Below, piece after piece: positions 29,386 to 64,000 of a stretch of DNA of 64,000 nucleotides; within the stretch, counting starts at the first letter, position 1, and every line of letters begins with the position of its first letter. The DNA comes from a candidate division WOR-3 bacterium (GTDB lineage: Bacteria > Hydrothermota > Hydrothermia > LBFQ01 > DSFT01): the NCBI GenBank assembly GCA_039802865.1, contig JBDRXL010000005.1, positions 6,099-70,098 of the forward strand, written 5' to 3'. The position numbers were made by a program, and so were the translations under genes. The notes beneath the pieces were generated by a model. That model was not told where the DNA came from. It was given only the letters and a program-made list of their open reading frames with translations, and searched no databases.

Positions 29386-30711
29386 ATGTTTTTGATAATA
29401 TTTTTTCAATTACAAGAAAGTGATTTAGAAGTTGAAGCAGAATTTATATCTGAAATTGATAAAATTCAAAAGCCCCTTTTTAATATAAATGATAGTCTAT
29501 ATAAGTTTCAAAAATTTGATTTAATTTTAAGAAGTTATAGAAATCCAAAAACTGATTTAGAAAGGTTTGTATTAGCGGAGGCTTATTACTATAAGAAGAA
29601 TTATAAAGATGCAGATGTGTTATATTCTGAAATTATAAGAAATTCAAATGATTCTCAATTGGTTGCTTTTTCAAAAAGGGCAAAAGCCTGGATTTTATAT
29701 CATTTTAAGTTATATCAAAATGCTATTGAAAATGCACAAAATGATAGTTTGCTTTTATCATTAAGCTTTATTAAGCTTAAAAATTATGCTAATGCTTATA
29801 ATATATCAAGGAATTTTGAAAATGATACATTTTTATTTATTAGTGGTTTTTCATCCTATTTGCTTAAAAATTATGATTTTGCAATTAGCTCTTTTGAAAA
29901 ATTATATCAAAATTATCCAAATAGCTCTTTTACCCCCTATGGTTTATATAGAATAGGTTTTATATATTTTAATACAGATTTTTATGATAAGGCAGTTAAA
30001 TACTTTTCAGTTTTAATAAAGAACTATCCAAATTTTCCATTTATTAAAAATGCTCTTTATTTAAATGCTTATAGTTATTATAAACTTTCTGATTATGAAC
30101 AAAGCTATGAATACTTGCTTAAACTAATAAAAAATTATCCAAATGATGATATAACAAGAACCGCCAAAAATCTAATTAAGGAAATTTATTTAGCAAGACC
30201 TGAAATTGTTGATAAAAATTCTGAATACTATGACTACTTAAAGGCATATAAGCTTTATAAAGAGAATAAATGTAATAGCGCTATTGAAGTTTATAAAATT
30301 TTCTTAAATTCAAAACAAAAAACAGTTTTATTTTTCTTTAAAACTACAATTGGAGATGCTTTCTTAAATGATACATATTTTGAGATGGGCAACTGTTATA
30401 AAGAAATTAGTGATTATAAATCTGCAATTGATTCTTATAAAAAATGCAAACTTAATGAGTGTAAATATGAATTAGCAATTTCATTATATTTAAATGGAGA
30501 TTATCCATCTGCAATTAGAGAATTTGAAAAATTATTAAAAGATAAAAACTTCATATCAAAAATCCCTGAAATATATTATTATATTGGACTTAGCTATTTA
30601 AAAATGAATAAGAGAAAAGTTTCAGAAGAGTATTTAAACAAAGCAAAAGCCTTATATTTAGAAGCAGGAAATAGTGAAAAAGTAAAAGAGATTGAAAGTT
30701 TATTGAAATGA
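29386..30711 (+). CDS. Tetratricopeptide-repeat protein
   Basis: Multiple TPR-like helices, e.g. A..FEKL..NYPNS, ALYLNAYSYY, IYYYIGLSY. Confidence 0.8.
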   Translation: MFLIIFFQLQESDLEVEAEFISEIDKIQKPLFNINDSLYKFQKFDLILRSYRNPKTDLERFVLAEAYYYKKNYKDADVLYSEIIRNSNDSQLVAFSKRAKAWILYHFKLYQNAIENAQNDSLLLSLSFIKLKNYANAYNISRNFENDTFLFISGFSSYLLKNYDFAISSFEKLYQNYPNSSFTPYGLYRIGFIYFNTDFYDKAVKYFSVLIKNYPNFPFIKNALYLNAYSYYKLSDYEQSYEYLLKLIKNYPNDDITRTAKNLIKEIYLARPEIVDKNSEYYDYLKAYKLYKENKCNSAIEVYKIFLNSKQKTVLFFFKTTIGDAFLNDTYFEMGNCYKEISDYKSAIDSYKKCKLNECKYELAISLYLNGDYPSAIREFEKLLKDKNFISKIPEIYYYIGLSYLKMNKRKVSEEYLNKAKALYLEAGNSEKVKEIESLLK

Positions 30712-30715
30712 TTAA

Positions 30716-31120
30716 GTGATAAGTATTAGTAAAAGAGAAGGATATTCTCCAATTCAAGTAAATCAAACAAATGATAGAGGTTTTTTAATTGTTGGTAATG
30801 GTTCTATTATTAGGTTAGATAAATATGGGAATATAAAATGGAAGAAAGCTACTAATAATATTTCTTCTTATGTTCCTCTTATTCAAACAAATGATAGAGG
30901 TTTTTTAATTTTTGATGATGGCTATGTAATCAAGTTAGACAAGGATGGAGATATTAAATGGAAGAAAATTGTAATAGAAACCGTAAGTAAAATAAGTAGT
31001 ATTAGTGATTTTGCTTCTATGATCCAAACAAATGATGAAGGCCTTTTGATTGTTAAAAATGGTTTTCTCCTTAGGACAAAAAATGGAAAATTAGTAATTA
31101 ATGCTTTAAAATTTTCATAA
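30716..31120 (+). pseudogene. Remnant of a beta-propeller repeat gene (about 2.5 repeats)
   Basis: Three (I/N)QTND(R/E)G(F/L)LI units; 28-bp exact repeat at 30763-30790 and 30883-30910; no signal peptide. Confidence 0.5.
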
Positions 31121-31122
31121 AT

Positions 31123-31644
31123 ATGATTATTTATCCATATAAAGGAAAATATCCAAAAATAAGTCAAACTGCTTTTATTGCTCCAAATGCTGTTATTATT
31201 GGAGATGTTGAAATTGGGGATTATAGTTCTATTTGGTTTTCTTGTGTGATTAGAGGGGATGTTCATTATATTAAAATTGGAAATTATACGAACATTCAAG
31301 ATTTAACGATGATACATGCAGAAAGAAATAAATATCCTACAATTATTGGAAATTATGTTTCAATTGGTCATAGGGCAATTATACATGGTTGTATTATAAA
31401 TGATTATGTTCTAATTGGAATGGGAGCAATTATTTTAAATAATGCATTTATTGATAGTTATACAATTGTTGCTGCTGGCTCTGTTGTAAGGGAAGATTTT
31501 AGAGGGGAAAAGGGGGTTTTAATAGCAGGAGTTCCAGCGGTTATCAAAAGAAAATTAACAGATGAGGAAATTGAACTAATTAAAGATATACCACAAAGAT
31601 ATGTAAATTATTCAAGGGATTATATAAATGAAGGGATTAAATAA
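31123..31644 (+). CDS. Gamma carbonic anhydrase-family hexapeptide-repeat protein
   Basis: AVIIGDVEIG, SIWFSCVIRGD, NIQD..MIH, IGH..IIHGC. Confidence 0.9.
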   Translation: MIIYPYKGKYPKISQTAFIAPNAVIIGDVEIGDYSSIWFSCVIRGDVHYIKIGNYTNIQDLTMIHAERNKYPTIIGNYVSIGHRAIIHGCIINDYVLIGMGAIILNNAFIDSYTIVAAGSVVREDFRGEKGVLIAGVPAVIKRKLTDEEIELIKDIPQRYVNYSRDYINEGIK

Positions 31645-31897
31645 AGCTATTGAAAATTATTTAAAATTATCAGGTCTTGAATGGATATTGGATTATATAG
31701 ATGTTAAAGAAATTGCAGAAAGTGTTTTAAAAAGTTATGATTTTGTTGAATTTGAAGATTTTAAAAATGGTATTCTGTTTTTAAAAGTAAAAGATAAAAG
31801 AAAAATTATGGAATTTCACTATAAAAAATTTGGTATTATAAAAGCAATAAATACCATAGCAAGAAGAGATATTGTAAAAGATATTGTTTTAAAATGA
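31628..31897 (+). CDS. Small hypothetical protein, DciA/DUF721-like
   Basis: 89 aa, FKNGILFLKV...EF.YKK..IIK.IN pattern. Confidence 0.45.
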   Translation: MKGLNKAIENYLKLSGLEWILDYIDVKEIAESVLKSYDFVEFEDFKNGILFLKVKDKRKIMEFHYKKFGIIKAINTIARRDIVKDIVLK

Positions 31898-33417
31898 AAA
31901 AACTTCTTTTTCTTGTTTTTTTTATATCTTGCCAACAACCCTTTATATTTAGAAAAAAACCCATTCTTATTGATACAACGGGAACTGTTTTAAATGTTGA
32001 GCCAATTGTAAGGGTAAAAATAGCTCAAGCGGATAGTTTTAATTTGGAATTTTCAGATAGTTTTTATATTATTAAACAAGATACAATTTTAAAGGGATTT
32101 AAAGGAAGTTTATTGTTAAAGTTTTTTGAAGGAAAATCTGCCAAATTAAAATATTATAAAATCCTTGGAAGATATAATAATGTTCCAGATGCTATTTTAG
32201 AAATAGCTTCACTTTCAAAATCAAAACTGAATTTTGAAATTAAGACAATTGGTATAAAACTTTCAAATGTTGATACAAGGGAATTTTTATTATTAGAAGG
32301 ACCATATGAAAAAATTGATAGTTTTATAGAAGGCAAAATTTTAGCTTTATTAGATAAAAGACAAATAGGCAAGATTTTTATTAAATATAATAATTTTGAA
32401 AAAGTTTTAGAAATACCTTTTGAAATTCATTCAAAATCACCTATCACAATAAAAAATTTCCTTTTAGATGATGGACTAAACCCACCAACTATTACAACAA
32501 GAAGTTATGAAGGTTATTTTGAAGTTTGGACTGATATTAATGGTAATCAAGTTTTAATAATAAATGTTATAAATTTTGAAAATTATATTAAGGGAATTTT
32601 GCCTTATGAAATGTCAAATAATTTTCCACTTGAAGCATTAAGAGCACAAGCAATTTTAGCAAGAAGTCATGCTTTAAGTGTTTATAGAAAAAAATTAATG
32701 TTATTATATCAACCCTATGATTTAACATCAGATGTATATACACAAGTTTATGGTGGAACGAAGGATGTAAATGATAATGTAAAATTAGCAGTAGATTTAA
32801 CAAGAGGTTTATTTTTAACATTTAATAATAATATTGTTTATGCATTGTTTCATTCAAGTTGTGGGGGAATTTTAGATGATGGGAACTTGTGGAATAAACC
32901 TTTGGATTATTACTTTTCAAGGCTTGACAATGATGAAAATAAATTTTTAGATTTAACAAATGATAGTTTGGTTAAAAAGTTTGTAGATAATGATAAATTA
33001 AATGTTTATTGTAATAATAAAAGCTTTATTGGAGCAAAAGAAGCCTTTAGATGGAAACAAGTTTTTAAAATATCTGAACTTGAAAAGAAATTAAATAGAA
33101 AAATAGTTGGTTTTGAGGTATTAGAAAGAACAAAAGCAGGAAGAATTAAAAGTTTAAAAATAAAATTTGAAGATGGTGATAGTGTAATTAATGGGGAGTT
33201 GAATATAAGGAAATTCTTTTATAAAAATGGCTATTTAAGAAGTGCTTTATTTTATTATGAAATTAAGGGTGATAGTTTGATTATAAAAGGAGCGGGATTT
33301 GGTCATGGAATTGGACTTTGCCAATATGGAGCAGGAGAAAGAGCATTAAAAGGTCAATATTATTATCAGATTATAAATGCTTATCTAAATGGTGTTGAAA
33401 TTAAGAGATTATATTAA
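31894..33417 (+). CDS. SpoIID/LytB-domain lipoprotein
   Basis: Lipobox-like FISC, YIKGILPYEM, EALRAQAILARS, QVYGG, FHSSCGG, GFGHGIGLCQYGA. Confidence 0.88.
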   Translation: MKKLLFLVFFISCQQPFIFRKKPILIDTTGTVLNVEPIVRVKIAQADSFNLEFSDSFYIIKQDTILKGFKGSLLLKFFEGKSAKLKYYKILGRYNNVPDAILEIASLSKSKLNFEIKTIGIKLSNVDTREFLLLEGPYEKIDSFIEGKILALLDKRQIGKIFIKYNNFEKVLEIPFEIHSKSPITIKNFLLDDGLNPPTITTRSYEGYFEVWTDINGNQVLIINVINFENYIKGILPYEMSNNFPLEALRAQAILARSHALSVYRKKLMLLYQPYDLTSDVYTQVYGGTKDVNDNVKLAVDLTRGLFLTFNNNIVYALFHSSCGGILDDGNLWNKPLDYYFSRLDNDENKFLDLTNDSLVKKFVDNDKLNVYCNNKSFIGAKEAFRWKQVFKISELEKKLNRKIVGFEVLERTKAGRIKSLKIKFEDGDSVINGELNIRKFFYKNGYLRSALFYYEIKGDSLIIKGAGFGHGIGLCQYGAGERALKGQYYYQIINAYLNGVEIKRLY

Positions 33418-33436
33418 GGTCCTTTAAAATATGAAT

Positions 33437-35347
33437 ATGAACGACAGAACCATAGTTGTAGCAGGACATGTAGGAAGTGGAAAGACTACTTTAATTGCCC
33501 AAATTTTAAAAATTACAAATACTATACAAAAGGTAGAAAAAAGCTTGCTTGATTATGACCCTATTGAACAATCTAAAAATATGACTATAAACTTAAAAGC
33601 TTTCAGAACAAAGTATAAAGAATATGACTTTCAATTTATAGATACACCAGGATTTATTGAGTTTGAAGGTGAGCTTATGAGTGCGGTAAGAGTTGCTGAT
33701 AATATGTTAATTGTTGTAGATATTTCAATGGGAATAGAAGTCGGTATTGAAAGGGCATTTGAAGAAGCAAAAAAGTATAATATTCCTATATTTTTTGCAA
33801 TAAATAAGTGTAAAAGTTATGAAAAGGACCCACAAGAGATTTTAAATTTATTAAAAAGCAAATTTTCAAAACAAGTTCATCCTGTCCAAATACCAATTGG
33901 AATAGGTAGTAATTTTAATGGAGTTTTTGATATAATAAATGGAGATTATAATTTGCTTGATGAAAATCTAAAAAAACAAGCTACGGAAAAATATGAGGAA
34001 TTTATAGAAGCGGTAGTTGAAACAGATGATGAATTGCTTGAAAAATATATTCAAGGTGAAGAGATTAGCAAGGAGAAAATTCATGATATTTTTAGAAAAG
34101 CAGTAGATAATAGTTTGTTTTATCCTGTTTTATACATAGATGCATTAAGTGGAGTTGGGGTTAATGAATTATTAGATTTTATTGGAGAATATGGAATTTC
34201 ATTTAAAGAGAGATATGATGATAAGCCTTTTAGCTCATTATTGATATTTAAAACATATTCAGAAGCTCATCTTGGAGAAATGTATCTTTTTAGAGTTTAT
34301 TCAGGAAAAATTACAACTGGTATGGAATTAAAAAATAGTAGAACAGGTACAATTGAAAAAATATCACATATATTTATTCCTTTTGGAAAGGAAAGAAAGG
34401 AGATAAATGAGTTAAAAATGGGAGAAATTGGACTTGTCTTAAAACTTAAAGATAGCAAAACAGGTGATACCCTTTCAAATGATAATATAACTTATGATTG
34501 GATAGAATATCCAGAACCATTATATGTAATAGGAATAAAGCCAAAAACTAAAAAGGATGAAGAAAAACTTTCAGAATCATTACAAAAAATTATGGCAGAA
34601 GACCCAACTTTTACATTTAAATATGACCCAAGTTTAAAACAAACATTATTTTATAGTCAGGGTGAAGTTCATACAAATATCATCTTAGAGAAATTAAAAC
34701 AAAGATTTTCAGTTGAAGTTGAAAAGGAAAAAGCAAAAGTTCCATATAGAGAAACAATTAGAAAGCCAGCAGAAGGACTTGGAAAATACATTAAGCAAAC
34801 AGGCGGTAGAGGTCAATATGGTGTTGCCAATATAAGAATTGAGCCACTTCCAAGGGGTGCAGGTTATGAATGGGTAGATAAAATTTTTGGAGGTGCAATA
34901 CCAAAGGAATATAGACCCTATGTTGAGCAAGGGGTTAAAAAGGCTATGGAAGAAGGATTTGTTCTTGGTTATCCAATTATAGATGTAAGAGTCATATTAT
35001 TTGATGGAAAATATCATGAAGTTGATTCTTCTAACTTAGCTTTTGAAATAGCAGGAAGTTTAGCTTTTAAAGATGCAGTAAGCAAAGCAGAACCATATAT
35101 GCTTGAACCTATTTATAATGTTGAGATTTATTCACCAGAAGAATATATAAGTGATGTAATATCTGAAATAAATACAAGAAGAGGTAAAATTATGAGTATT
35201 GAAAGTAATAAAATTAGTGCTCAAATACCACTTGCAGAACTATACGATTTCTTACCAGCTCTTAGGGCAAAAACAAAGGGAAGAGGGAGATTTAAGATGG
35301 AATTTTCACATTATCAGGAGGTTCCTATAAATTTAGTAAAGCAGTGA
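33437..35347 (+). CDS. Elongation factor G paralog (EF-G2-like)
   Basis: GHVGSGKTT, DTPG, INK, EDPT, VPYRETI, KQTGGRGQYG, HEVDSS, LEPIY; degenerate switch I. The second ATG fits the -10 spacing. Confidence 0.85.
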   Translation: MNDRTIVVAGHVGSGKTTLIAQILKITNTIQKVEKSLLDYDPIEQSKNMTINLKAFRTKYKEYDFQFIDTPGFIEFEGELMSAVRVADNMLIVVDISMGIEVGIERAFEEAKKYNIPIFFAINKCKSYEKDPQEILNLLKSKFSKQVHPVQIPIGIGSNFNGVFDIINGDYNLLDENLKKQATEKYEEFIEAVVETDDELLEKYIQGEEISKEKIHDIFRKAVDNSLFYPVLYIDALSGVGVNELLDFIGEYGISFKERYDDKPFSSLLIFKTYSEAHLGEMYLFRVYSGKITTGMELKNSRTGTIEKISHIFIPFGKERKEINELKMGEIGLVLKLKDSKTGDTLSNDNITYDWIEYPEPLYVIGIKPKTKKDEEKLSESLQKIMAEDPTFTFKYDPSLKQTLFYSQGEVHTNIILEKLKQRFSVEVEKEKAKVPYRETIRKPAEGLGKYIKQTGGRGQYGVANIRIEPLPRGAGYEWVDKIFGGAIPKEYRPYVEQGVKKAMEEGFVLGYPIIDVRVILFDGKYHEVDSSNLAFEIAGSLAFKDAVSKAEPYMLEPIYNVEIYSPEEYISDVISEINTRRGKIMSIESNKISAQIPLAELYDFLPALRAKTKGRGRFKMEFSHYQEVPINLVKQ

Positions 35348-42771: not shown

Positions 42772-42805
42772 TTAGTTTAAAATTTTAAAGCTTTATAATT
42801 TTCAA

Positions 42806-45514
42806 ATGCTTGAACTTATCCTTCTTACTTATTTTGGGAAAAATAAAATTCAATATAAGGATTTTGATTGGAAGATTGCCCAAAGTGAGCATTTTAAAGT
42901 ATTCTATTATGATGGTGGTGAATATCTAAAAGACTTTGCAATTGCTGTTTTAGAAGAAGCTTTTGAGGAATATAAAACAATAATGCCAAGAATTCCAAGA
43001 GATAAAATTCCTGTTATAATTTATAATTCCGCAGAAGATTTTAGACAAACAAATGTTATATTTGATTTAATTGATGAGGGTGTTGGTGGATTTACAGAAG
43101 TTTTCAAAAATAGAATTGTAGTTCCATTTTTTAATTCTTATGAAGACTTTAAACATGTTTTAAGACATGAATTAGTTCATGCATTTCAATATGAAGCTTT
43201 ATCTACTACTGGCTCTTTATTATCAAATGTTGGAAGAATTCCACTTTGGGTTATGGAAGGTATGGCGGAATATGTTTCAATTGGTTGGGATATTACAGGA
43301 GAAACATTTATAAGGGATTTAGTTTTAAATGATTTAATTGTTCCTGTTGAAAATTTATCCTATTATGGAGGATATTTAATTTATAAGCAAGGACAAGCAA
43401 TTTATTATTTTATTGAAAAGGAGTATTCAAGAACTAAACTTAAAGAATTTATATCAAATGCCTTAATGATGTATGACTTAAATAATGCAATTAGAAGAAC
43501 ATTTAATATGTCCATAGAAGAGTTTTCAAGAAAATTTAATATATTTTTAAAAGAACGATATTATCCAGATTTAAGAGAATTTAAACTTCCTTCAAATATT
43601 GTAAGAATTACAAATAGTAGAAAAGGTCAAGGTTATTTTAATATAGCACCCGCTATTGACCCAGATGCAAATAAAATTGTTTTTATTTCTGATAGAAGTG
43701 ATTATAGTGATATTTATATATCAACTATTACTGGTTCTTCACAAAAAAGAATTATTTCTGGACAAACAAAACCAGATTTAGAAAATTTACATCTTCTCTC
43801 TGCAAGAATATCCTTTTCAAATGATGGTAATTATTTTACTTTTATAGCAAGGGGGAAAGGTTATGATATTATTTATATTTCAGATACAAAAGGTAAAATT
43901 ATTAGGAAAATTGAGCTAAAAAAATTAGATGGAGCAAACTATCCAAAATTTTCAAGAGATGATAAATTTATAGCTTTTATTGGATTAAAAGATGGAAAAC
44001 AAGATGTTTATTTGTATAACTTAAAGACAAATGTTTTAAGAAGACTTACAAATGATTATTTTAATGATTTGTTCCCAACATTTGACGAAGAAGGGAATAT
44101 ATATTTTATAAGCGATAGAAATGAGAGTATTTATAATTTTGGAAATTATGCAGTTTTTAAATATGACATAAAAAATGATAGTATTCATCAGATAACACCA
44201 TATTTTGGTAAAATTCATTATTTTGATTTAAGGAATGGAAACCCTGTTCTTTCACTTGAATATAAAGGAACAATTAATGTTTTTGAATATAAAAATAATA
44301 AACTTTATATGCTAACGAACTTCCCAAGTGCTGTATATAGCTTTTCATTTGATAAAACAGGAGAAAAAATGGTTATTAATTTACAATATGAAGGAGCAAG
44401 AGAAATTTTCTATGTGCCTGAAATTAGAATTTTAGATAGCATAGATATACCAAATAGTAATTTTATGAGTTTTAAGGTTTTGGATTATAAGAATTATAAA
44501 TATAAGACGGAATTTTCATTAAGCTGGCTTTCAGGAATTGCAGTTGGAAGCAATTTAGGGCTTGGAGGATATGTTACATTTGGATTTAGTGATTGGACTG
44601 GTGATAACTGGATTATATTCCAAACTCAATCATATATTACTGATATTTCAAATGCTATATTTTTCTTTGATTATTTATATCTTAAAAAGCGCTGGGATTT
44701 AGATGCATCCGCATACCAATACTGGTCAATAAGTTATTTAGATAAATATAACTCATTCTCATATGATAAAATTTTGGGCTCTAATCTATTAGTTTATTAT
44801 CCTTTTAATAGATTTGATAGGCTTGAATTTGGAATTTCTTACAATTATTATACAAGGTATATTGGGAATTTTACATTCATAGGATTTTTATATGATTCCA
44901 TTTTATATAGGCATGGTTTAAGTGGTTATGTTGGATTTTCAAGGGATAAAATTTTATATTATCCTTGGGGACCTGTTCAAGGGCATGGGTTTTTTATAGC
45001 ATTTCAACCATATTTACCTTTTTCACAAATCAAAAATCATATTATTTATGGTGATTTTCGCTATTATTTAAGATTTGCTAAAAGATATACTCTTGCTTTT
45101 AGAACCATAGGTTATAAGTCTTTTGGTGAAGATAGAGAGGGAACAATATTATATGGACCTGATTTAATTAGAGGTTGGACACTTGATACAATTTTAATTG
45201 GAAATAATGCTTTTATCACAAATTTAGAATTTAGATTTCCTTTTATTGATTATTTAAAGCTTGGTTTTCCTATTCCTTTAACTATATCTTCTATAAGAGG
45301 AGCAATTTTTTATGATATAGGTTCTGCTTGGTTTGATAATGATTTTAAGTTTTTTGATAATGATAGTTTATATACACCAAAATCCGCTTTTGGCTTTAAT
45401 ATCTCTGTATTTTTAGGATTTGGAAATATATATCTTACTTGGGCTTGGCGCACAAACCTAAAATATACTGAAAGTTCCCCTAATTTTAGTATATATTTTG
45501 GATTGGATTATTAA
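42806..45514 (+). CDS. Outer-membrane protein: peptidase MA-like domain, TolB-like propeller and BamA/TamA-like barrel
   Basis: YFGKNKIQY, HELVHAF (HExxH), WVMEGMAE, PD40-like repeats, C-terminal FSIYFGLDY. Confidence 0.8.
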   Translation: MLELILLTYFGKNKIQYKDFDWKIAQSEHFKVFYYDGGEYLKDFAIAVLEEAFEEYKTIMPRIPRDKIPVIIYNSAEDFRQTNVIFDLIDEGVGGFTEVFKNRIVVPFFNSYEDFKHVLRHELVHAFQYEALSTTGSLLSNVGRIPLWVMEGMAEYVSIGWDITGETFIRDLVLNDLIVPVENLSYYGGYLIYKQGQAIYYFIEKEYSRTKLKEFISNALMMYDLNNAIRRTFNMSIEEFSRKFNIFLKERYYPDLREFKLPSNIVRITNSRKGQGYFNIAPAIDPDANKIVFISDRSDYSDIYISTITGSSQKRIISGQTKPDLENLHLLSARISFSNDGNYFTFIARGKGYDIIYISDTKGKIIRKIELKKLDGANYPKFSRDDKFIAFIGLKDGKQDVYLYNLKTNVLRRLTNDYFNDLFPTFDEEGNIYFISDRNESIYNFGNYAVFKYDIKNDSIHQITPYFGKIHYFDLRNGNPVLSLEYKGTINVFEYKNNKLYMLTNFPSAVYSFSFDKTGEKMVINLQYEGAREIFYVPEIRILDSIDIPNSNFMSFKVLDYKNYKYKTEFSLSWLSGIAVGSNLGLGGYVTFGFSDWTGDNWIIFQTQSYITDISNAIFFFDYLYLKKRWDLDASAYQYWSISYLDKYNSFSYDKILGSNLLVYYPFNRFDRLEFGISYNYYTRYIGNFTFIGFLYDSILYRHGLSGYVGFSRDKILYYPWGPVQGHGFFIAFQPYLPFSQIKNHIIYGDFRYYLRFAKRYTLAFRTIGYKSFGEDREGTILYGPDLIRGWTLDTILIGNNAFITNLEFRFPFIDYLKLGFPIPLTISSIRGAIFYDIGSAWFDNDFKFFDNDSLYTPKSAFGFNISVFLGFGNIYLTWAWRTNLKYTESSPNFSIYFGLDY

Positions 45515-46770: not shown

Positions 46771-47029
46771 AAAGGTTGTAATTGTTAATAAACTTGGTAT
46801 TCATGCAAGACCTGCTACAAAAATAACAGAAATTGCAAACAAATTTGTTTCAGAAATATATATAGAAAAGGATGGAATGGTTGCAAATGCAAAAAGTATC
46901 CTTGGTATTTTAATGTTAGTGGCTCCAAAAGGAACTGAACTAATAATAAGAGCAGAAGGACCCGATGAAGTAGAAGCAGTTGAAAGTATTGCAAAAATAA
47001 TTGAAGAAGGTTTTGGAGAGGAAATATGA
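46760..47029 (+). CDS. ptsH: Phosphocarrier protein HPr
   Basis: GIHARPA (His15), NAKSILG (Ser46). Confidence 0.95.
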   Translation: MYLKKVVIVNKLGIHARPATKITEIANKFVSEIYIEKDGMVANAKSILGILMLVAPKGTELIIRAEGPDEVEAVESIAKIIEEGFGEEI

Positions 47030-48564
47030 AATTAAGAGGCATAGCTATTGTAAAAGGTTATACAGCGGGAGAAATTTTCATAGTAGATAGTAGTTATGAT
47101 AATGAAAATAATGATATTAAAATAGAGCAAGTAGAGGAAGCAATAAAACTTTATATTAACTATTTAATGGAAGAAGTTGAGGGGATGGAAAACAAATATA
47201 AGGAATATGCGAATTTTTATATAAACTTATTAAAAAGTCCAACTTTTATTCAAAATATAAAAAGCAAAGGAAATAACATTATCCAATCCATAAGCTTAGC
47301 AATTGATGAAATTGCCAATAAAATGTTAGAAATAAATGATGAGCACTATAAAAGCATTTCAAATGAGTTAAAATTTTTTAAAAATGAATTGTTAGACTTT
47401 ATAAGAGGAAGAGTTGATAATTTAGAAATTAAACAAAATAGCATAATAGTTGCAAAAAATTTAACTGTAAGGCAGAGTTTAAAAGCTATTAAAAGTAATA
47501 TAAAAGGAGCAATTCTAGAAACATCCGCTTTAACTTCCCATCCTGTTTTAATTTTAAAAGATAAAGGAATACCTACAATTATAGGTATAGAAAATGCTGT
47601 AAATATCGCTAAAAATTACAAATATGCAATTTTAAATGATGATGAAGTTGAATTTACAAATGAAACTTTAATTTTTCAAACAAAAAGCATTGATATAATT
47701 TATGATAAGGACGAATTTGAAACGAAAGATGGAATAAAAGTAAAAGTTCAAATAAATATTGACTTTCCAAGTGAAATAGAAAAAATTAAAAATTTTGACA
47801 TTGGACTATTTAGAACAGAATACTTATATTTAAATGGAATTATAGGAAAAAATGAGCAAAAAGATATTTACGAATATATGAGTCAAAAAGTTTATCCAAA
47901 AATTTTAACAATAAGATTATTTGACCTTGGAGGGGATAAAGTTCCACTTTCCCTTGAAAATACATCAGTTAGAGGGATTAGATATTTATTAAATTATAAT
48001 AGAGAGCTTTTAAATAAGCAAATAAGCGCAATAAAATTGGCAAATAAATTAAAAAATATAAGGATTTTAATTCCAATGGTATCTTCTGTTGAAGAAGTTA
48101 TTGAAATTAGAAAGCTAATAGAAGATATTGATATTGGAATTATGGTTGAAACACCATCATCAGCACTTATAACAGATAGATTTAAGAAATATGTTCAATT
48201 TTTTAGTCTTGGAACTAATGACCTTAGTCAATATACCCTTGCAATAAGTAGAAATGATATAAACTTTCAACAATTTCATCCAAGCATATTTAGATTAATT
48301 TACTATTCATTTTCTAAATCAAAACCAAAGCCTTTTAGTGTTTGTGGAGATATGGCAAGCAATGACTTGGGATTAATTGCTTTATTGTCATTTGGAATTA
48401 GGATTATATCAATTCCTATTTCTTATGTTAATAGGGCTAAGGAAATAATTGGAAAATTAAATAAACAAATGCTTTCTGAAATATCAAGAAAAATTATAAC
48501 TGCACATAAAGAGGAGGATATTTTAAAATGCTTGAACTATTACTTGGATATTTTATCAAAGTAA
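47026..48564 (+). CDS. ptsI: PEP-protein phosphotransferase (Enzyme I), divergent
   Basis: TSHP, GLFRTE, RLFDLGGDK, MVETPS, GTNDLSQY, VCGD. Confidence 0.85.
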   Translation: MKLRGIAIVKGYTAGEIFIVDSSYDNENNDIKIEQVEEAIKLYINYLMEEVEGMENKYKEYANFYINLLKSPTFIQNIKSKGNNIIQSISLAIDEIANKMLEINDEHYKSISNELKFFKNELLDFIRGRVDNLEIKQNSIIVAKNLTVRQSLKAIKSNIKGAILETSALTSHPVLILKDKGIPTIIGIENAVNIAKNYKYAILNDDEVEFTNETLIFQTKSIDIIYDKDEFETKDGIKVKVQINIDFPSEIEKIKNFDIGLFRTEYLYLNGIIGKNEQKDIYEYMSQKVYPKILTIRLFDLGGDKVPLSLENTSVRGIRYLLNYNRELLNKQISAIKLANKLKNIRILIPMVSSVEEVIEIRKLIEDIDIGIMVETPSSALITDRFKKYVQFFSLGTNDLSQYTLAISRNDINFQQFHPSIFRLIYYSFSKSKPKPFSVCGDMASNDLGLIALLSFGIRIISIPISYVNRAKEIIGKLNKQMLSEISRKIITAHKEEDILKCLNYYLDILSK

Positions 48565-49820
48565 ATGAAAGCAATATATCTTTATTAAAAATTATTGAAA
48601 CTGAAAATAGTGTAATTGGAATTGGGAACAGATTAAATGAAAACAACATAGGAGAAATTGTAATTTTGAAATTTTCAAATGATGGTAATTTAATTTTTTC
48701 AAAATCCATATATTCAAACAAATACTTAATTTTTTCAGATGCGGTTTATAGAAATGGTAAAATTTATATAATTGGAACAATACCCATTGAAAATGAAGGA
48801 AATAACATCCTTTTTATATGCATTGATACAAATGCTAACATTCTCATTTCAAGATATTTTTCTGTAATTAACTATGAAAGCCCAAGTGCCATTACAATTC
48901 TCAATGATAAAATCTATATAATTGGAAATATGAATCCCTTAAATAATATCCCAAGGATGTTCTTTCTAATTACTGATACCCTTGGCATTCCAAAATTTTT
49001 AAAAATTGCTTACTTTCTTGTTAATTTTACTAATTTGAAAGGTTTTTTCATTGAAAACAATAACATTTATGTATATGGTGATTACTTTGATAATAAAAGA
49101 ATTCCATTTGTTTTTAAATTTGATAGTTTATTCAATTTGTTAGAAGGAAAGAAGTTTTCTTTAAATACGAACTTACCCATTTTAGGCTTTCAAAAAGTAA
49201 ATGATAGTATTTTCATATTATTTGATAAATACCTTCTAACATTAAGAAGCGATTGGAAAATTTTGAATATAAAAAGTCTTTCAAACTTAATCCCAAAATT
49301 TTTAAATTACTCTACCGTTCTTGAAATTTTTGGAATTTTCAATGACAAACCATTTTATTATGTTTTAGATAGACATTTTCCAATTTTAAAGTATGCAAAT
49401 ATATCATCAAACAATTTAAAATATGCCAAAAACTACATTTTATTTAATTCAACAACTGATTATTTATTCCCAAAAAATTTAACAAACTGCGATGTTTTTC
49501 AATATCAACTCTTTTACTTAAATGATATAAATTTAAACCTAACCGTAGAAAACTTCCCGATTACCTTAATCTCATTTTCTATTCCGTTTTCACAAGTAAG
49601 CTTATATATTAAAGATATAAATACTTCAATTTCATATATTTGTCCTACAAGTGCTATTAAAGATGAAAATTTTGAAGTTTCGTATGATAAATTTTATGAG
49701 GTTTATAAAATTGATGGAACATTTCTTGGAAAACTAAAACCAAAAAATCTAAAAAAGGGCATCTATATTTTAAAGGATGGGAAGAAATGTAAGAAGTTCT
49801 TCAAACTTCATTCCCCTTGA
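48528..49820 (+). CDS. Hypothetical exported protein with a minimal T9SS-like tail
   Basis: Propeller-like repeats (KFSNDGNLIF, IDTNANIL, TDTLG), C-terminus VYKIDGT..KKGIYILK. Confidence 0.5.
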   Translation: MLELLLGYFIKVNESNISLLKIIETENSVIGIGNRLNENNIGEIVILKFSNDGNLIFSKSIYSNKYLIFSDAVYRNGKIYIIGTIPIENEGNNILFICIDTNANILISRYFSVINYESPSAITILNDKIYIIGNMNPLNNIPRMFFLITDTLGIPKFLKIAYFLVNFTNLKGFFIENNNIYVYGDYFDNKRIPFVFKFDSLFNLLEGKKFSLNTNLPILGFQKVNDSIFILFDKYLLTLRSDWKILNIKSLSNLIPKFLNYSTVLEIFGIFNDKPFYYVLDRHFPILKYANISSNNLKYAKNYILFNSTTDYLFPKNLTNCDVFQYQLFYLNDINLNLTVENFPITLISFSIPFSQVSLYIKDINTSISYICPTSAIKDENFEVSYDKFYEVYKIDGTFLGKLKPKNLKKGIYILKDGKKCKKFFKLHSP

Positions 49821-55368: not shown

Positions 55369-55380
55369 ACTTTCACCTCC

Positions 55381-57611: not shown

Positions 57612-57731
57612 AATTTATATAAGTTATTGTTTATGAATAACTTAAAAAATTACTCATTTTATAATTTGCCAACTTAAAGGGTTTGTTAAATGAAATTAAC
57701 AATTAAAATTTTAAAGTTTAAAATTTTGCAT

Positions 57732-58646
57732 TTGAAAAAGGCTTTAATTATTAGACTTGGGCAACTTGGTGATGTTATTCTTACTACAAGTGTAATAGAA
57801 GAACTATATGAAAGGAACTATGAAATTCATTATTTAACAAGAAAACCCTTTAATGAGATATTTGCAGATGATTTTAGAGTTAAAAAAGTTTTTATTGATA
57901 AGGAAGTTAAATTATCAGAGCTATTAAAAGAGAAATATAGTCTTATTTTGGACCTGCACTTTAAATTTAAAACTTTTCTTCTTTCAAAAATAATTTCTCC
58001 ATTTCATTCAAAACATTATAATAAGAGAATTTTGGAAAGAAGGCTTACACTTATTTTTAAAAAAAATTTTAATAATAAGAGGATTTATGAAATGTATAAT
58101 GAAACAATTAATTCAAATAAAAAACCAAAGCTTATTGTAAAAGGAGAACCTATTATTGAAGGTGATTATATTGTTATAAATCCAACTGCAAGATATAGCT
58201 CAAGAATTTATAGACATTATGATAAGCTTGATAAACTCCTTGAAAATATACCTATAAAAAAAGTTTATATAGGGACAGAAAAGGATTTACACTTTTTAAA
58301 AAATTATGAATTTTCAGGTATTAATTTAATTGGGAAAACAACTATAAGGGAAATGTTATTGATAGTAAAGTATGCAAAATTGTTTGTTGGAAATGATAGT
58401 GGAATTAGTCATATAGCAAGCGCATTTAATATACCTTCTATTGTATTTTTTGGTCCTACTGTTTTAAGTTTTGGTTTTGAACCATTTTCAGATAAATATA
58501 AAGTTTTTCAAGTAAATGATTTACCTTGTCGGCCTTGCTCACTTCATGGTGAAAAACCTTGTAAAAGGAATGATTATGCTTGTCTTGATTGGATAGAACC
58601 AGAAATTGTATTTGAAAAAATTTTAGAATTTCTTTCATTGCTTTAA
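57732..58646 (+). CDS. Glycosyltransferase family 9 (heptosyltransferase-like)
   Basis: IRLGQLGDVIL, DLH, GNDSG..HIA, FFGPT, CRPCS.HG..C; TTG 57732 lies 7 nt after TAAAAT. Confidence 0.88.
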   Translation: MKKALIIRLGQLGDVILTTSVIEELYERNYEIHYLTRKPFNEIFADDFRVKKVFIDKEVKLSELLKEKYSLILDLHFKFKTFLLSKIISPFHSKHYNKRILERRLTLIFKKNFNNKRIYEMYNETINSNKKPKLIVKGEPIIEGDYIVINPTARYSSRIYRHYDKLDKLLENIPIKKVYIGTEKDLHFLKNYEFSGINLIGKTTIREMLLIVKYAKLFVGNDSGISHIASAFNIPSIVFFGPTVLSFGFEPFSDKYKVFQVNDLPCRPCSLHGEKPCKRNDYACLDWIEPEIVFEKILEFLSLL

Positions 58647-58655
58647 ACTTTTGAA

Positions 58656-59135
58656 ATGAAAAGAGCAATATATCCAGGAACGTTTGACCCAATTACAAAT
58701 GGACATATAGATATTATAAAAAGGGCATTAAAACTATTTGATGAAATTATAATAGCAATTGCAGAACCAAGACATAAAAAACCTTTATTTGACCTTCAAG
58801 AAAGAATTTATTTAGCAAAAGAAAGTTTAAAAGGAATTAATAATATTCAAGTTTTAAGTTTTGATGGTTTATTAGTTGATTTTTGTAAAAAGTTAAATGT
58901 TAGTATTGTTATAAGGGGAATTAGAGCGGTTTCAGACTTTGATTATGAATTTCAAATTGCTTGGATGAATAGAAAATTATTAAGTGATATTGAAACGATA
59001 TTTTTAATGCCATCAGAAGATTATTTCTTTTTATCTTCAAGTCTTGTAAAAGAAGTCGCTATGCTTGGAGGTAATATTGATAATCTTGTGCCCCCTATTG
59101 TAAAAAAAGCCCTTTTGGATAAATTTAAAAAATAA
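58656..59135 (+). CDS. coaD: Phosphopantetheine adenylyltransferase
   Basis: YPGTFDPITNGH, RGIRAVSDFDYE, SSSLVKE. Confidence 0.96.
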   Translation: MKRAIYPGTFDPITNGHIDIIKRALKLFDEIIIAIAEPRHKKPLFDLQERIYLAKESLKGINNIQVLSFDGLLVDFCKKLNVSIVIRGIRAVSDFDYEFQIAWMNRKLLSDIETIFLMPSEDYFFLSSSLVKEVAMLGGNIDNLVPPIVKKALLDKFKK

Positions 59136-60019
59136 TGACAAACAAACAACTTGAAAATTATTTAAAAGAGCATTATAAAGATAAATATGAAAAATTTCTT
59201 GAATGGTCATTAATACCATTAAGACCAGTAATTAGGGTAAATACATTAAAAGCAGAGATTGATGATGTTTATAAAAGGCTTACAAATAAAGGATTTATAT
59301 TATCTAAAATTGATTTTATAAATTTTGCATTTAGGGTTGAATATTATCCTTATGAGATTGGTAATACTCTTGAGCATTATTTGGGTTATGTTTATGTTCA
59401 AGAGATTTCTTCAATGATACCTGCTATTCTTTTAGAACCAAAAGAGGGAGAAATAATTTTAGACCTTTGTGCTGCTCCTGGCTCAAAAACAACATTAATT
59501 TCACAATTGATGAATAATAAAGGTGTTATTATAGCTAATGATGTAAATATAGATAGAACTTCTGCCCTTGCATTTAATGTTGATAGAATGGGTTGTTTAA
59601 ATGTAATTATAACTCAATTTAAAGGTGAGATATTTTATAAGTATTATGAAAATTATTTTGATAAAGTTTTAGTAGATGTTCCTTGTTCTGCTATTGGAAC
59701 AATTCATAAAAATAAAGAGATTTTAAAATGGTGGAGTTATAAAAAAGTAAGAGAATTTTCAAAGCTACAAAAGAAACTTATTGAAAGTGGATTTTTATCA
59801 TTAAGAAAGGGTGGGATATTAATTTATTCAACATGCACAATTACAAGAGAAGAAAATGAAGAAGTTATTAATTATTTAATTAGCAAATATGAAAATGCAA
59901 AAGTTGAAAAAATTACTTTACCATTTAATGATTATTATACTGATAGTTTAAATTTAGGGGTTTATATAAGTTTTGGAGAATATGAGCCATTTTATATATG
60001 CAAAATAAAAAAATTATGA
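59135..60019 (+). CDS. RsmB/RsmF/NOP2-family RNA m5C methyltransferase
   Basis: RVNTLK, QEISSM, DLCAAPGSKT, DVPCS, YSTCT..EENE. Confidence 0.9.
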   Translation: MTNKQLENYLKEHYKDKYEKFLEWSLIPLRPVIRVNTLKAEIDDVYKRLTNKGFILSKIDFINFAFRVEYYPYEIGNTLEHYLGYVYVQEISSMIPAILLEPKEGEIILDLCAAPGSKTTLISQLMNNKGVIIANDVNIDRTSALAFNVDRMGCLNVIITQFKGEIFYKYYENYFDKVLVDVPCSAIGTIHKNKEILKWWSYKKVREFSKLQKKLIESGFLSLRKGGILIYSTCTITREENEEVINYLISKYENAKVEKITLPFNDYYTDSLNLGVYISFGEYEPFYICKIKKL

Positions 60020-61113
60020 AAGTTTTAATTCTTGGAGACTTTCAATCAAAACATACAATTTTATGGTTTAAAAGTTATTCTAAATTTTTTGAAACATATG
60101 GATTTTCCCTTCAAGAGCCAATTATAAAAGATGAAAAAATTTTTTATGTTAAACCAAAATCCCATTCAGAGAAGTTAAAATATATTTTAGCATTAAATGA
60201 ATTAAAGAAAATTTATGAAAAAATTAAACCAGATATAATTCATGCACATTTTATTCAAAATTATGGGCTTATGGCTTATTTACTAAAAAAACCTTATATA
60301 TTGTCTGTCTGGGGAAGAGATTTATTTTCAATAGCTTATAAGAAATTTAGAAATTATATTTCAAGAGAAATTTTAAAAAGTGCTAAAATTATTCATGTTG
60401 ATGCATATTCTCTTAAATGGCTTTTAGTAAATAACTTTCAGATTAATCCATTTAAAATTATAAACTTTCCATTTGGTCTTGAAAGTGAAATTTTAAATAA
60501 ACCTTTAAAGCCACTGAAAAATGATATTTTTAGAATTGTTGAATTTAGAAAGCATATAAATGAAATTTATAATCAATTAAAAATTTTAGAAGCAATAAAA
60601 GTTTTAAAGAAAAGAGGATTAAAGAATTTTGTTTTATTTTTTCTTTCAAAAGGAAAAGATAGTGAATATTATAAAAAAATTTGTATAGAATTTGGAATAA
60701 GTGATTTAGTTGAATTTAAACCTTCAACACATAGTGAGATAATGGATTTGCTTTCAGAAAGTCATATTTATATAAGTGCATCCTTTGTTGATTCAACATC
60801 AGTTTCACTTCTTGAAGCTATGAATTTTGGAGCATTTCCTATTGTCTCTGATATTTGGGCTAATTTTGAATGGGTTATAGATGATTTTAATGGTTATTTA
60901 TTTAATCCTTTAAATGAATATGATATTGCCCAAAAAATTGAAAAGGCTATGGATTTTGAAAAAATTGAAAAAGCAAGAGTTATAAATAAACAAATAGTAA
61001 AGGAAAAAGCAGATTGGGAAAAGAATTTTTATAGTTTTTTAAATTTCATAAGTTTAAATTCATTTCAAATAGATAAAAAAATTAAAGGCAAATTTCCTTG
61101 GAGTTATATTTAA
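60016..61113 (+). CDS. Glycosyltransferase family 4
   Basis: PDIIHAH, SVWGRD, SVSLLEAM..G..PIVSD. Confidence 0.85.
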   Translation: MKVLILGDFQSKHTILWFKSYSKFFETYGFSLQEPIIKDEKIFYVKPKSHSEKLKYILALNELKKIYEKIKPDIIHAHFIQNYGLMAYLLKKPYILSVWGRDLFSIAYKKFRNYISREILKSAKIIHVDAYSLKWLLVNNFQINPFKIINFPFGLESEILNKPLKPLKNDIFRIVEFRKHINEIYNQLKILEAIKVLKKRGLKNFVLFFLSKGKDSEYYKKICIEFGISDLVEFKPSTHSEIMDLLSESHIYISASFVDSTSVSLLEAMNFGAFPIVSDIWANFEWVIDDFNGYLFNPLNEYDIAQKIEKAMDFEKIEKARVINKQIVKEKADWEKNFYSFLNFISLNSFQIDKKIKGKFPWSYI

Positions 61114-61162
61114 AATTATATGGTGCTTGCCCCTTTAAAATTTTCAAGAATAGTTTTAGTGA

Positions 61163-64000
61163 ATGTTTATTATTTTAATTTCTGATTTTCAAATTCAAAA
61201 GAAGCTTTTTGAAAGATATGCCTATGTAGAAAAGCAAATCTCATTCTTCAATAGACGAATAAATCCCCTTAAATTTTACAAAAATAAATTCAATATATTC
61301 CAAACAGATACTATAACTATTTGTATATTAGCTTTAAGAGTTGAATTTCAAGAAGAAAATCCAGATGATCCCCTTACAACAGGAAATGGCTTATTTGATA
61401 CTACAAGTTATGGAACAAAAGGCACATTTGATTATAAACCCCCTTATGATAGCTTATATTTTTCATCAATTTTAGAATTTTCAAAAAATTACTTTTTATC
61501 TGCAACTTATAATAGAATTAAGTTCAAATATAGTATTTCACCAGTTATAAAAGTTCCTCACAAAATTAGATATTATGGAGATTTGAACTTCTTTGTTCAA
61601 GGTATAACATCATTTTTTAGGGATGCTATAAGAAGTGCTGACCAGATGGGAATTTTCTCAAATCAAAATTTAGCTTATTGTAATCCTCAACCAGGAGAAT
61701 TAATTTTTAGAAGAATTGCTATATTTTTTGCAGGCTCTGCATATCAAACTGATATAAATGGAGATACTCCTTATGATTTGCCAGCTCTTACAATTTTTCC
61801 TGGTGCTCTTGAATACTATCTTGGAGAGCCATATATTATAGTAAATAATGGAATTGATACAATATACGATGCAACAATATTACCACAAACATTAAGACAA
61901 GATGGAATTAATGTTGGACTTGAAGGAACAGTTATTCATGAGCTTAACCATTTAATTTTCTTTGTAGATGATTTATATGATTATACTGGAATTGGAACAG
62001 GAGCAGGATATTTTGACTTAATGGCAGTTGGTGGTTATGGTGGAGATATTGATAATATACCAGAAGGCTACCTTCCTACACTTCCTGGTGCTTATACAAA
62101 ATTATATATGGATAGTATATTAAATTTAATATGTCCAAGTTGTCAAAGAATTATTGAGCCAAATGAAATTATTGATATTCAATTAAGTTTAAATGAGCAA
62201 ATTTTTAATATACTACCATCTACATTTTATCCACAATTTTATAGAATTTTATTTGACAATAAGGAATATCTTCTTATTGAGTTTAGAAAAAGGGAAAAAA
62301 TTGAAGATAATAAAGTGGAATTTATATGGAGTAGTGATAGCTCTTATAGATTTGGTGTTAAGAATGATGAATGGGATTATGCTTTACCTGGTGAGGGAAT
62401 TTTAATATGGCACATTGATAAAAACATCATTGATTCATTTGGATTTTTATTTCAATCTAATAGACCAATGGGAGTTAGTTTGATTGAGGCAGATGGTGTC
62501 CCAGACTTTCAATATTTTATAAAATATCCAGAGGGTTGGAAGGGCTCTAAATATGACCCATTTTATAGAGGAAATAGGGATAGAATTGATGATTTTACTT
62601 ATCCTTCATTAAAAACAAATGAAAATAAAATAACAGGATTTGAAATTTATGATATTTCTAATGTTTCAAGCAATATGAGTTTTAAGGTAAGAAATCAAAA
62701 ATTATTAAAGTTATATCTTGGAAATGAAAATTATAAATTCCAAAAGCAATATATTATTTCAAAAGATAATTTCATTATGGCTTTGTTTGAAGGGCACTTA
62801 GATACAATTGACCAAAATACAAACACAGTAAGAATTTATTCGGAGTTATATTTGTTCAAATCAGATGGAAATCCTTATTATAATCAAGCCCTTGTTAAAA
62901 TATTTTTCCAAATTAGAGATTATACATTTTATCCATATTTATTCAAATATCCACCACTCATTGAAGACTTTAATAATGATGGAAATTATGAAATATATTT
63001 AGGCTCAACAGACGGGAAATTATATAGCTTTTTAATTTCAAATACGTTTTCAAATAATTATATTCAAGGTTTCAATTTTCCAATTAGAAGTTGTTTAAAA
63101 AGAATTAAAAATTACATCTTGCTTGGAACAGATGAAGGAAAACTTATATTATTTGAGCCAATTTCAAGAACAATTTTTAAATCAAAATTTCTTAACTTCC
63201 CTATCTCTACATGTTTTCAAATCAAAAACGATACAATATATTTACAAGGAATTGATGGAACATTTTATATAATTGATGATACACTTGGCATAATAAATTC
63301 AAAACAACTTGAAGTCTTACCTAAACCTATTGAAGTTATCCCAATTATATTAAAAGATAGAATTTATACTCTTACGAACAACTATCTTTGGATATTAGAT
63401 AAGAATTTAAACATTTTAAGACAAGTTGAATTAAAGGATATTGCTAAAAATTTAAGCTATTATAAAGATGGAATTTTGGTTATAACGGAAAATGGAATTT
63501 ATAAATATAATTTTGAAGGAGCTTTGATGGGTTATATAAATGAAAAAACTGCATTTGTTTTAAGTGCAGATACAAGCATTTTATTTAATTCATATGTTTT
63601 TAATTATTCAAAAGGATTTTCTGATGTTTATCCTTTATTGAAAAATTCAATTTTTGTTCATTCTGACTTAAAAAACAATATATACTTTTGGAATTTCAAT
63701 TATAGTCAATCCTTTATATCTTCCTTTTATGAATATAATGACATATCGGAGTTTCCTGTTTCAAAGAAAATTAAACTTTTGGCTTATCCAAATCCCTTAA
63801 ATTCAAATCAAAAGCTTACAATAAGATTCTATGTTGAAGAGATTAAAAGTTATAAAGTGAGAATTTTTGATTTTTCTGGAAGAATTGTATATGAACAAGA
63901 AGTAAATCCAAATTTAAAAGGAATTTATGAATTTAAAGTTGATAATAAATTTAAAAAAGGAGCATATATTGTAGAAATTGAAGGACAAACTACAAAATTT
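61163..64000 (+). CDS. Secreted M6-like zinc metalloprotease with FG-GAP/propeller region and T9SS type-A-like tail; runs off the window end
   Basis: Missing from the track because it has no stop in the window. Hand-translated open frame: ALRVEFQ..DPLTTGNG, HELNH..DDLYD (61937-61951), GILIWHID, IEADG, DFNNDG, AYPNP..RIFDFSGR..KGAYIV. Confidence 0.85.
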   Translation, partial: MFIILISDFQIQKKLFERYAYVEKQISFFNRRINPLKFYKNKFNIFQTDTITICILALRVEFQEENPDDPLTTGNGLFDTTSYGTKGTFDYKPPYDSLYFSSILEFSKNYFLSATYNRIKFKYSISPVIKVPHKIRYYGDLNFFVQGITSFFRDAIRSADQMGIFSNQNLAYCNPQPGELIFRRIAIFFAGSAYQTDINGDTPYDLPALTIFPGALEYYLGEPYIIVNNGIDTIYDATILPQTLRQDGINVGLEGTVIHELNHLIFFVDDLYDYTGIGTGAGYFDLMAVGGYGGDIDNIPEGYLPTLPGAYTKLYMDSILNLICPSCQRIIEPNEIIDIQLSLNEQIFNILPSTFYPQFYRILFDNKEYLLIEFRKREKIEDNKVEFIWSSDSSYRFGVKNDEWDYALPGEGILIWHIDKNIIDSFGFLFQSNRPMGVSLIEADGVPDFQYFIKYPEGWKGSKYDPFYRGNRDRIDDFTYPSLKTNENKITGFEIYDISNVSSNMSFKVRNQKLLKLYLGNENYKFQKQYIISKDNFIMALFEGHLDTIDQNTNTVRIYSELYLFKSDGNPYYNQALVKIFFQIRDYTFYPYLFKYPPLIEDFNNDGNYEIYLGSTDGKLYSFLISNTFSNNYIQGFNFPIRSCLKRIKNYILLGTDEGKLILFEPISRTIFKSKFLNFPISTCFQIKNDTIYLQGIDGTFYIIDDTLGIINSKQLEVLPKPIEVIPIILKDRIYTLTNNYLWILDKNLNILRQVELKDIAKNLSYYKDGILVITENGIYKYNFEGALMGYINEKTAFVLSADTSILFNSYVFNYSKGFSDVYPLLKNSIFVHSDLKNNIYFWNFNYSQSFISSFYEYNDISEFPVSKKIKLLAYPNPLNSNQKLTIRFYVEEIKSYKVRIFDFSGRIVYEQEVNPNLKGIYEFKVDNKFKKGAYIVEIEGQTTKF

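Follow-up and report, generated by a model that had tools for sequence, protein, structure and literature searches.

Short, uncharged N-terminal heads as probable minimal signal peptides of exported proteins in a WOR-3 bacterium

How short a natural signal peptide can be, and whether it can do without a positive charge, is a question raised by four genes located in a 64,000-nt stretch of DNA of an uncultured, hot-spring-type candidate division WOR-3 bacterium (class Hydrothermia), whose products are predicted to be exported and yet begin with hydrophobic heads of no more than 7–9 residues. The stretch, called the window below, comprises positions 6,099–70,098 of contig JBDRXL010000005.1 (C5) and belongs to a 1.64-Mb metagenome-assembled genome (MAG) of 54 contigs, with a G+C content of 27% and a completeness of 92%. 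All the evidence discussed here comes from MAG sequences, with the genes called by a simple in-house caller. The reading favoured here, with a probability of roughly 0.7, is that the heads are true minimal Sec signal peptides specific to this lineage.

Four N-termini in the window and their homologues

In a sequence-only reading of the window four proteins had been singled out as exported ones with ultra-short hydrophobic N-termini, and translation bears this out. The proteins begin with MLELILLT followed by YFGKNK (gene start at 42806), MFLIIFFQ (29386), MFIILISD (61163), and MLELLLGYF (48528), and none of them has Lys or Arg ahead of its hydrophobic run. The respective in-frame stop codons lie upstream as described (TAG 42773, TAA 29350, TGA 61160, and TAA 48507), and neither ATG, GTG, nor TTG is found between the stop and the start at any of the four genes, all of which are located on the plus strand.

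The tetratricopeptide repeat (TPR) gene (29386–30711) codes for a protein of periplasmic type with YbgF/CpoB- and BamD-like repeats, whose head (29386–29409) comprises seven uncharged hydrophobic residues, MFLIIFF, and Gln as the first polar residue at position 8. In the 902-aa protein encoded at 42806–45514, the eight residues MLELILLT (42806–42829) stand directly ahead of the conserved mature start YFGKNKIQYKDFDWK. The 430-aa protein (48528–49820) carries the short, uncharged to acidic hydrophobic head MLELLLGYF (48528–48554), a member of an M-phi-[D/E]-phi3 subclass. The fourth gene, coding for an M6-like metalloprotease and continuing past the window end, starts with the 7-residue hydrophobic head MFIILIS (61163–61183), with the TGA stop immediately ahead of its ATG.

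The 902-aa protein had been labelled BamA-like, which holds for its C-terminal part. Its last 345 residues (558–902, gene positions ~44477–45511) are modelled by AlphaFold2 as an all-beta barrel (pLDDT 76), and the top 50 PDB matches of this model found by Foldseek are all BamA barrels (TM 0.6–0.68, E down to 7e-10), so that by fold it conforms to the 16-stranded Omp85 barrel. The label fails at the level of sequence, as family profile searches with the 902-aa protein gave no Omp85 match and POTRA domains are absent; the N-terminal ~550 residues comprise a peptidase MA/BSP part and TolB/PD40-type propeller repeats. The protein is, as modelled, one with an Omp85-type barrel, not BamA itself. 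The name M6 protease proved likewise partly apt, since the protein resembles the NCBIfam model of T9SS (type IX secretion system)-dependent M6-like proteins, but its score, 152 bits, falls short of the 600-bit cut-off. The protein ends with a type A T9SS C-terminal domain (CTD) at 63785–64000 (plus strand), scoring above the cut-offs of both PF18962 (30.7 bits, cut-off 27) and TIGR04183 (32 bits, cut-off 23). Neither Pfam nor NCBIfam gave a match for the 430-aa protein, whose tail, KGIYILKDGKKCKKFFKL, resembles the end of a T9SS CTD and scores below threshold. The idea that the proteins are cytoplasmic is thus at variance with the predicted Omp85-type fold and the T9SS CTDs, and also with a 950-aa short-signal protein of this genome, which begins with MLVILTYF and has an OmpA peptidoglycan-binding domain; all of these point to export. 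In the whole genome, 49 matches to Por_Secre_tail are found, 24 of them over the cut-off.

The homologues of the barrel protein (20 + 30 + 80 compared) indicate what the head stands for. In other phyla, including Zixibacteria, KSB1, Ignavibacteria, Kapaibacteria, Bacteroidota, Gemmatimonadota, and Cloacimonadota, its presequence is 21–43 aa long, contains 1–4 Lys/Arg residues, and usually ends with AQ or SQ, so the short leader is not a property of the protein family everywhere. Many WOR-3 and Stahlbacteria genomes encode a presequence of 10–16 residues, with no Lys or Arg and ending with SQY, and in the genus studied here it has eight residues (MLELILLT, MIEILLIT, MIEFFLLV, and MVELLLFT), with Glu3 conserved. 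Presequences of varying length are followed by the same conserved mature sequence, FGKNKVQYKDFDWK, and in over 100 homologues they end 0–5 residues before FGKNKVQY. The short head therefore occupies the position of the signal in the orthologues, and a cut beyond about residue 9 would remove strongly conserved mature sequence. The AQ or SQ ends of this protein in Zixibacteria, KSB1, Ignavibacteria, Kapaibacteria, Gemmatimonadota, and Cloacimonadota are an observation in their own right, since the preference for Gln at +1 described for Bacteroidota (see below) may reach well beyond that phylum, at least in the barrel-protein family.

The M6-like protease presents a similar picture in four species-level relatives, where the heads are MILFLFSN, MFIILITD, MFLVLTLN, and (M)ILILLNSS. 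They vary in letters and stay hydrophobic over 7–8 residues, which suggests a signal peptide selected for its character rather than its exact letters. Among T9SS cargo proteins of 14 other WOR-3 genomes, canonical and uncharged signals are mixed. The mixed or longer uncharged signals elsewhere in WOR-3 make the trait a graded one within the phylum, with this genus at the extreme.

A genome-wide class of short heads

A first, looser class of short heads was dropped as unspecific, because about 10% of the genes called in two control WOR-3 genomes fell into it. It was replaced by a strict class, defined as at least 5 residues, at least 70% of them L/I/F/V/M/W/A, then a polar residue and then a non-membrane stretch, with the internal Met positions of the same genome serving as the null. 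The strict class comprises 123 of 1524 N-termini, while 2.2% of internal Met positions fit it (~35 expected; 3.6-fold enrichment, p ~2e-31). Its usual form is Met with 6–8 Leu/Ile/Phe residues, no Lys or Arg, and a polar residue at position 8–9, the median position of the first polar residue being 8. This residue is Gln in 45 of 115 cases (39%), 18-fold over the background, and Asn in 32. A subclass with Asp or Glu at position 3 (the MLEL... type) has 12 members against 1.9 expected, and MLFLILSQ-, MLELILLT-, and MKKVLFLLLIAC-type heads are examples of the short heads. The class is strongly enriched on T9SS-CTD proteins (odds ratio 9, p 1e-9); by eye, ~27 of the 33 complete ORFs (open reading frames) with a T9SS CTD (PF18962) bear a short L/I/F head without Lys or Arg, and ~4 an MKK/MRK-type signal. 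In the two control WOR-3 genomes passed through the same pipeline uncharged heads are fewer and longer, with the first polar residue at a median position of 12 and 9.5, respectively.

An independent ruler of signal length is provided by the lipobox Cys, because there the cut site is defined. In the 60–63 lipobox proteins of the genome the Cys is most often at position 12–14 (31 of 63), the core has ~8 residues, and 1–2 Lys/Arg are kept; in two proteins the Cys stands as early as position 8–9 (MIILVIS and MIVFVLIS, each followed by C). It appears from these counts that most exported proteins of the signal peptidase I (SPase I) type in the genus begin with fMet and 6–8 strongly hydrophobic residues, followed by a polar one, most often Gln, and that the lipoproteins begin with M-(K/R)1-2 and ~8 hydrophobic residues ending in the lipobox Cys at 12–14.

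The heads share with a classical Sec/SPase I signal (n-h-c, von Heijne rules) the extreme N-terminal site and the order of a hydrophobic core and a polar stretch. They differ from it in length (7–9 residues versus 18–30), in the lack of a basic n-region, with an acidic residue at position 3 in some, in an h-region at or below the experimental minimum, and in a weak -3/-1 small-residue pattern. The basic n-region is missing from the four proteins of the window and from ~27 of the 33 T9SS cargo proteins, and the h-region, usually of ~7–15 residues, is at its lower edge, with 6–8 L/I/F-rich residues directly after Met. Other known signal types do not fit, as none of the four proteins has a lipobox ([LVI][ASTVI][GAS]C) or a Tat twin-arginine motif (S/T-R-R-x-F-L-K), Arg being absent from their first 10–29 residues. 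The loss of positive charge in Lpp, OmpA, and PhoA variants is said to be offset by a more hydrophobic core, a result attributed to the Inouye laboratory in the 1980s, to Chou and Kendall, and to Hikita and Mizushima. The natural heads, almost pure Leu/Ile/Phe, are similar to such charge-less E. coli signals, but the latter are laboratory constructs of at least 15 residues, usually exported more slowly, and the former are the natural default of a lineage.

The position of Gln recalls the substrates of SPase I in Bacteroidota, which follow a "Q-rule" with Gln at +1 (Bochtler et al. 2018, PMC5837995; PMC10653852). As in those substrates, Gln directly follows the signal (the 39% given above), T9SS cargo is present in the lineage, and AQ or SQ forms the end of the longer signals, both in this genome and in homologues from the FCB group. 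Unlike here, the rule has been described as specific to Bacteroidetes and concerns signals of normal length. By this likeness Gln would be the +1 residue of the cleavage site.

In a genome of 27% G+C it has to be asked whether the heads are a product of AT-rich composition, with Phe, Ile, and Leu codons piling up near T-rich promoters, or decaying signals of proteins whose export has been lost, and 2.2% of internal positions do fit the pattern. Such an origin is very improbable. It is contradicted by the 3.6-fold N-terminal enrichment, specific to exported families, and by cytoplasmic proteins encoded behind the same promoter box (described below), which begin with MKILIK or MIEKINK. Lys, with its codon AAA, ought to be frequent under an AT bias but is avoided, and the position-specific Gln is left unexplained. 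Moreover, another WOR-3 genome (G010), of 30% G+C, has mostly MKK-type T9SS signals, and the ORFs are long and intact.

Start codons and promoters of the short-head genes

The starts of the four genes are marked by their upstream sequences. A promoter box, CTTTAAAATTT, is found at 29370–29380 (plus strand), where 5 nt separate it from the ATG of the TPR gene and the start is of leaderless type, and at 61133–61143 (plus strand), 19 nt before ATG 61163, which leaves a short leader with no Shine-Dalgarno (SD) sequence; a similar box at about equal spacing is present in three of four relatives of the M6-like gene. The barrel-protein gene (plus strand, from 42806) and its divergent neighbour (minus strand, from 42771), with 34 bp between the starts, share a bidirectional promoter region at 42776–42801. 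It consists of a perfect 14-bp palindrome, TTTAAAATTTTAAA (42776–42789), serving the minus-strand gene, and the box CTTTATAATTT (42791–42801, plus strand), 4 nt before ATG 42806; both boxes are on the genome-wide box list (C5 + 48873/48889 and C5 - 28764). The start at 48528 is pinned independently of the promoter box by the SD sequence AGAGGAGGA (48510–48518, plus strand), 9 nt before the ATG. This SD sequence is located inside the preceding 512-aa ORF (47026–48564), which the gene 48528–49820 overlaps by 37 nt.

With one mismatch allowed, CTTTAAAATTT is located 4–8 nt before ~500 ATGs genome-wide, and at the same distance it precedes most of the short-head genes. Cytoplasmic products are encoded behind it as well, ribosomal proteins and tRNA synthetases among them. 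A divergent upstream neighbour is found for 51% of the box genes versus 9% of the SD genes, and the box is therefore a promoter giving leaderless or near-leaderless mRNA; this figure, together with the cytoplasmic genes, rules it out as a coding element or a ribosome-binding site. The in-frame TAA recurring just upstream of the starts is a part of the box. The arrangement is reminiscent of the leaderless genes of Actinobacteria and Deinococcus-Thermus, with their -10-like box ~7–10 nt before the start, CTTTAAAATTT being likewise close to the ATG and enriched at operon-first genes. In the window such an element a few nt before the start is found at 29386 and 42806, the spacing at 61163 being 19 nt and the gene at 48528 SD-led.

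Leaderless architecture, unlike an export signal, concerns transcription and initiation, and it fixes the start codon without explaining why the signal is short. As a cause of the short signals it can be discarded, because SD-led genes share them and leaderless lipoproteins keep MKK. Many SD-led genes bear the same heads, and therefore the heads are not start-calling artefacts. One of these is found in the window on the minus strand, where an SD-led 131-aa ORF (25701–26096) starts with another short uncharged head, MIVFNLLISFV (26064–26096). This ORF matches DUF7948 and is followed downstream by a 624-aa CTD-bearing ORF (23546–25420, minus strand), and the two resemble one T9SS cargo gene parted by a ~280-nt gap or a frameshift. 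Elsewhere in the genome its paralogues are each encoded by one unbroken ORF of ~570–840 aa, and the split gene (23546–26096) may have become a pseudogene or result from faulty assembly.

An n-region could also have been hidden from view if the true N-termini were longer owing to non-AUG initiation (ATT or ATA), frameshifting, read-through, or assembly errors. In-frame ATT codons do occur upstream of 29386 and 42806, and translation from an out-of-frame ATG at 61120 would yield MVLAPLKFSRIVLV. Both ATT codons, however, are located within the -10-like promoter box and would add just 2–8 residues, and in general the stops lie 0–11 codons upstream and the DNA between them and the starts is promoter box or SD sequence, so that non-canonical upstream starts such as ATT could not bring back a signal of normal kind. 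An alternative genetic code and read-through are ruled out, since TAA, TAG, and TGA all serve as upstream stops, often as the TAA inside the box. At the M6-like gene the TGA abuts ATG 61163, the stops of the four relatives are 0–3 codons upstream, and their upstream sequences differ, so that a frameshift from ATG 61120 is also ruled out. The open frame ahead of the starts is not conserved between relatives, the same heads occur on SD-led genes with the SD sequence at its normal distance, and MAGs of independent studies agree, so that it is hardly credible that the N-termini have been misjudged.

Sec machinery, loss of SRP, and significance of the heads

SecA, Ffh, and LepB had been named in the sequence-only reading as the proteins worth inspecting, and the inspection gave a divided result. 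SecA, SecY, LepB, and LspA are encoded (SecA, LspA, and also Def were located by motif, and SecY by a hidden Markov model), the single LepB having the SGSMEDT catalytic box and one N-terminal transmembrane segment, much like LepB of the relatives. [quoted passage not shown] The SRP54 and SRP_SPB domains (PF00448, PF02978) were not found in the genome, the DTAGR motif occurs in no frame, and tblastn with Ffh and FtsY of SRP-containing WOR-3 genomes returned P-loop noise alone. In the survey of SRP, Ffh and FtsY are absent from nine genomes, i.e., this one, seven others of the same class, including the 100%-complete G006 and G058, and G001 of another family, and are kept in seven other WOR-3 families; the genomes that lack 4.5S RNA (RF00169) are precisely these nine, and the three components together are present in 6–7 of the other families. 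Reviews call the SRP system universal. The lack of Ffh, FtsY, and SRP RNA resembles the situation in SRP-independent mitochondria (Oxa1 C-tail, mL105) and in Streptococcus mutans ffh/ftsY mutants with YidC2. Unlike those, it concerns a free-living diderm thermophile lineage whose YidC has no extended basic C-tail: in the SRP-less relatives YidC is present with a short C-tail, and no compensating tail of the Oxa1/YidC2 type was found in them.

SRP loss as the cause of the short signals is unsupported. T9SS signals without Lys or Arg make up 16 of 55 in the SRP-less genomes versus 5 of 31 in the SRP-containing ones (p 0.2), and exceptions run both ways: G058 is SRP-less with canonical signals, and the barrel protein bears an uncharged signal in G017, G031, and Stahlbacteria, all of which have retained SRP. 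The loss is a separate, strong observation, and with regard to the short signals it may be permissive rather than causal.

The sequence-only reading had offered two options, a signal peptide of minimal size and a variant route of recognition, a proposal that is supported as it stands, the sequence allowing for either. In the second case the head would be a targeting element of a non-standard route, or remain uncleaved, and merely resemble a truncated Sec signal; SecA- or YidC-only insertion, an unrecognised receptor taking over after SRP loss, and a transient tether removed by another protease are conceivable variants. The missing SRP would suit such a route, as would the absent or acidic n-region (Glu3 of the barrel protein and the M-phi-[D/E] excess given above), the weak enrichment of small -1 residues, and a length of eight residues, which falls below the known limits for SPase I substrates. 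Against it, the head stands exactly at the site of the homologues' canonical cleavable signals, the enrichment of Gln just behind the head has its counterpart in the SPase I Q-rule (PMC5837995), a standard lipobox is kept in lipoproteins whose cores are no longer, WOR-3 lineages with an SRP also have uncharged signals of a similar kind, and YidC of the SRP-less relatives lacks a ribosome-binding tail. A non-standard route is therefore considered unlikely, although far less remote than mistaken starts or a compositional origin.

If the heads are minimal Sec signals, a very hydrophobic short core alone would engage SecA/SecYEG, offsetting the missing charge and length. The uncharged N-terminus, formylated or free, would not be anchored at the cytoplasmic face, so that a peptide of eight residues could get as far as the peptidase site, and LepB would cut just before Gln, as in the Q-rule of Bacteroidota, probably leaving pyroglutamate. 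Several points weigh against the heads being minimal Sec signals. In E. coli, according to work attributed to Chou and Kendall, Hikita and Mizushima, and Jain, Rusch and Kendall, an h-region of ~8–10 residues and a c-region of 3–9 residues are reportedly needed, and eight residues in total are too short for a bilayer-spanning helix. The residue preceding the first polar one is small (S/A/T) in just about a third of the class (37 of 115) and Leu in another third (36 of 115), which makes the cut site uncertain, and ~35 of the ~120 members of the strict class are expected by chance. Type I glutaminyl cyclase (PF05096) was not found in six WOR-3 genomes; the genome encodes an exported M28 protein that has a PDZ-like tail, and a cytoplasmic protein of M20/M28-like type, but these M28 matches are at most candidate cyclases, and cyclisation may be spontaneous at high temperature. 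Finally, neither YidC (PF02096) nor a T9SS translocon of SprA/Sov size (longest ORF 1383 aa) was found in this 92%-complete assembly.

A bolder claim, to which slightly less than even odds are given, is that the secretome of the whole lineage leaves the cell by means of signal peptides shorter than any other natural ones known (7–9 residues, uncharged or acidic, cut before Gln) and without the SRP pathway. In the literature searched, WOR-3 is not treated with regard to signal peptides, secretion, leaderless genes, or SRP, and the short-signal trait appears undescribed there. N-terminal proteomics is feasible, because a cultured member of Hydrothermia exists (strain sy37, NBRC 116057; PMC12285271).

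The signal rules in use, a basic n-region and 18–30 residues, underlie secretome prediction and much of secretion engineering, and they are not universal. Should the bolder claim be true, standard predictors would grossly under-call the WOR-3 secretome. The short signals also imply that present tools systematically overlook exported proteins of WOR-3, its T9SS cargo and outer-membrane proteins included, or assign them to the wrong compartment. How membrane proteins are targeted without SRP becomes directly testable in a free-living, diderm, thermophilic class that has lost Ffh, FtsY, and 4.5S RNA and has a member in culture. Uncharged signals of 10–16 residues, common in the phylum, and those of ~8 residues, the norm in the genus, offer natural minimal signals for the study of Sec and signal-peptidase mechanics, and under the bolder claim either SecA, SecYEG, and LepB would work far below the limits of length and charge derived from E. 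coli, or an unrecognised receptor would read the heads.

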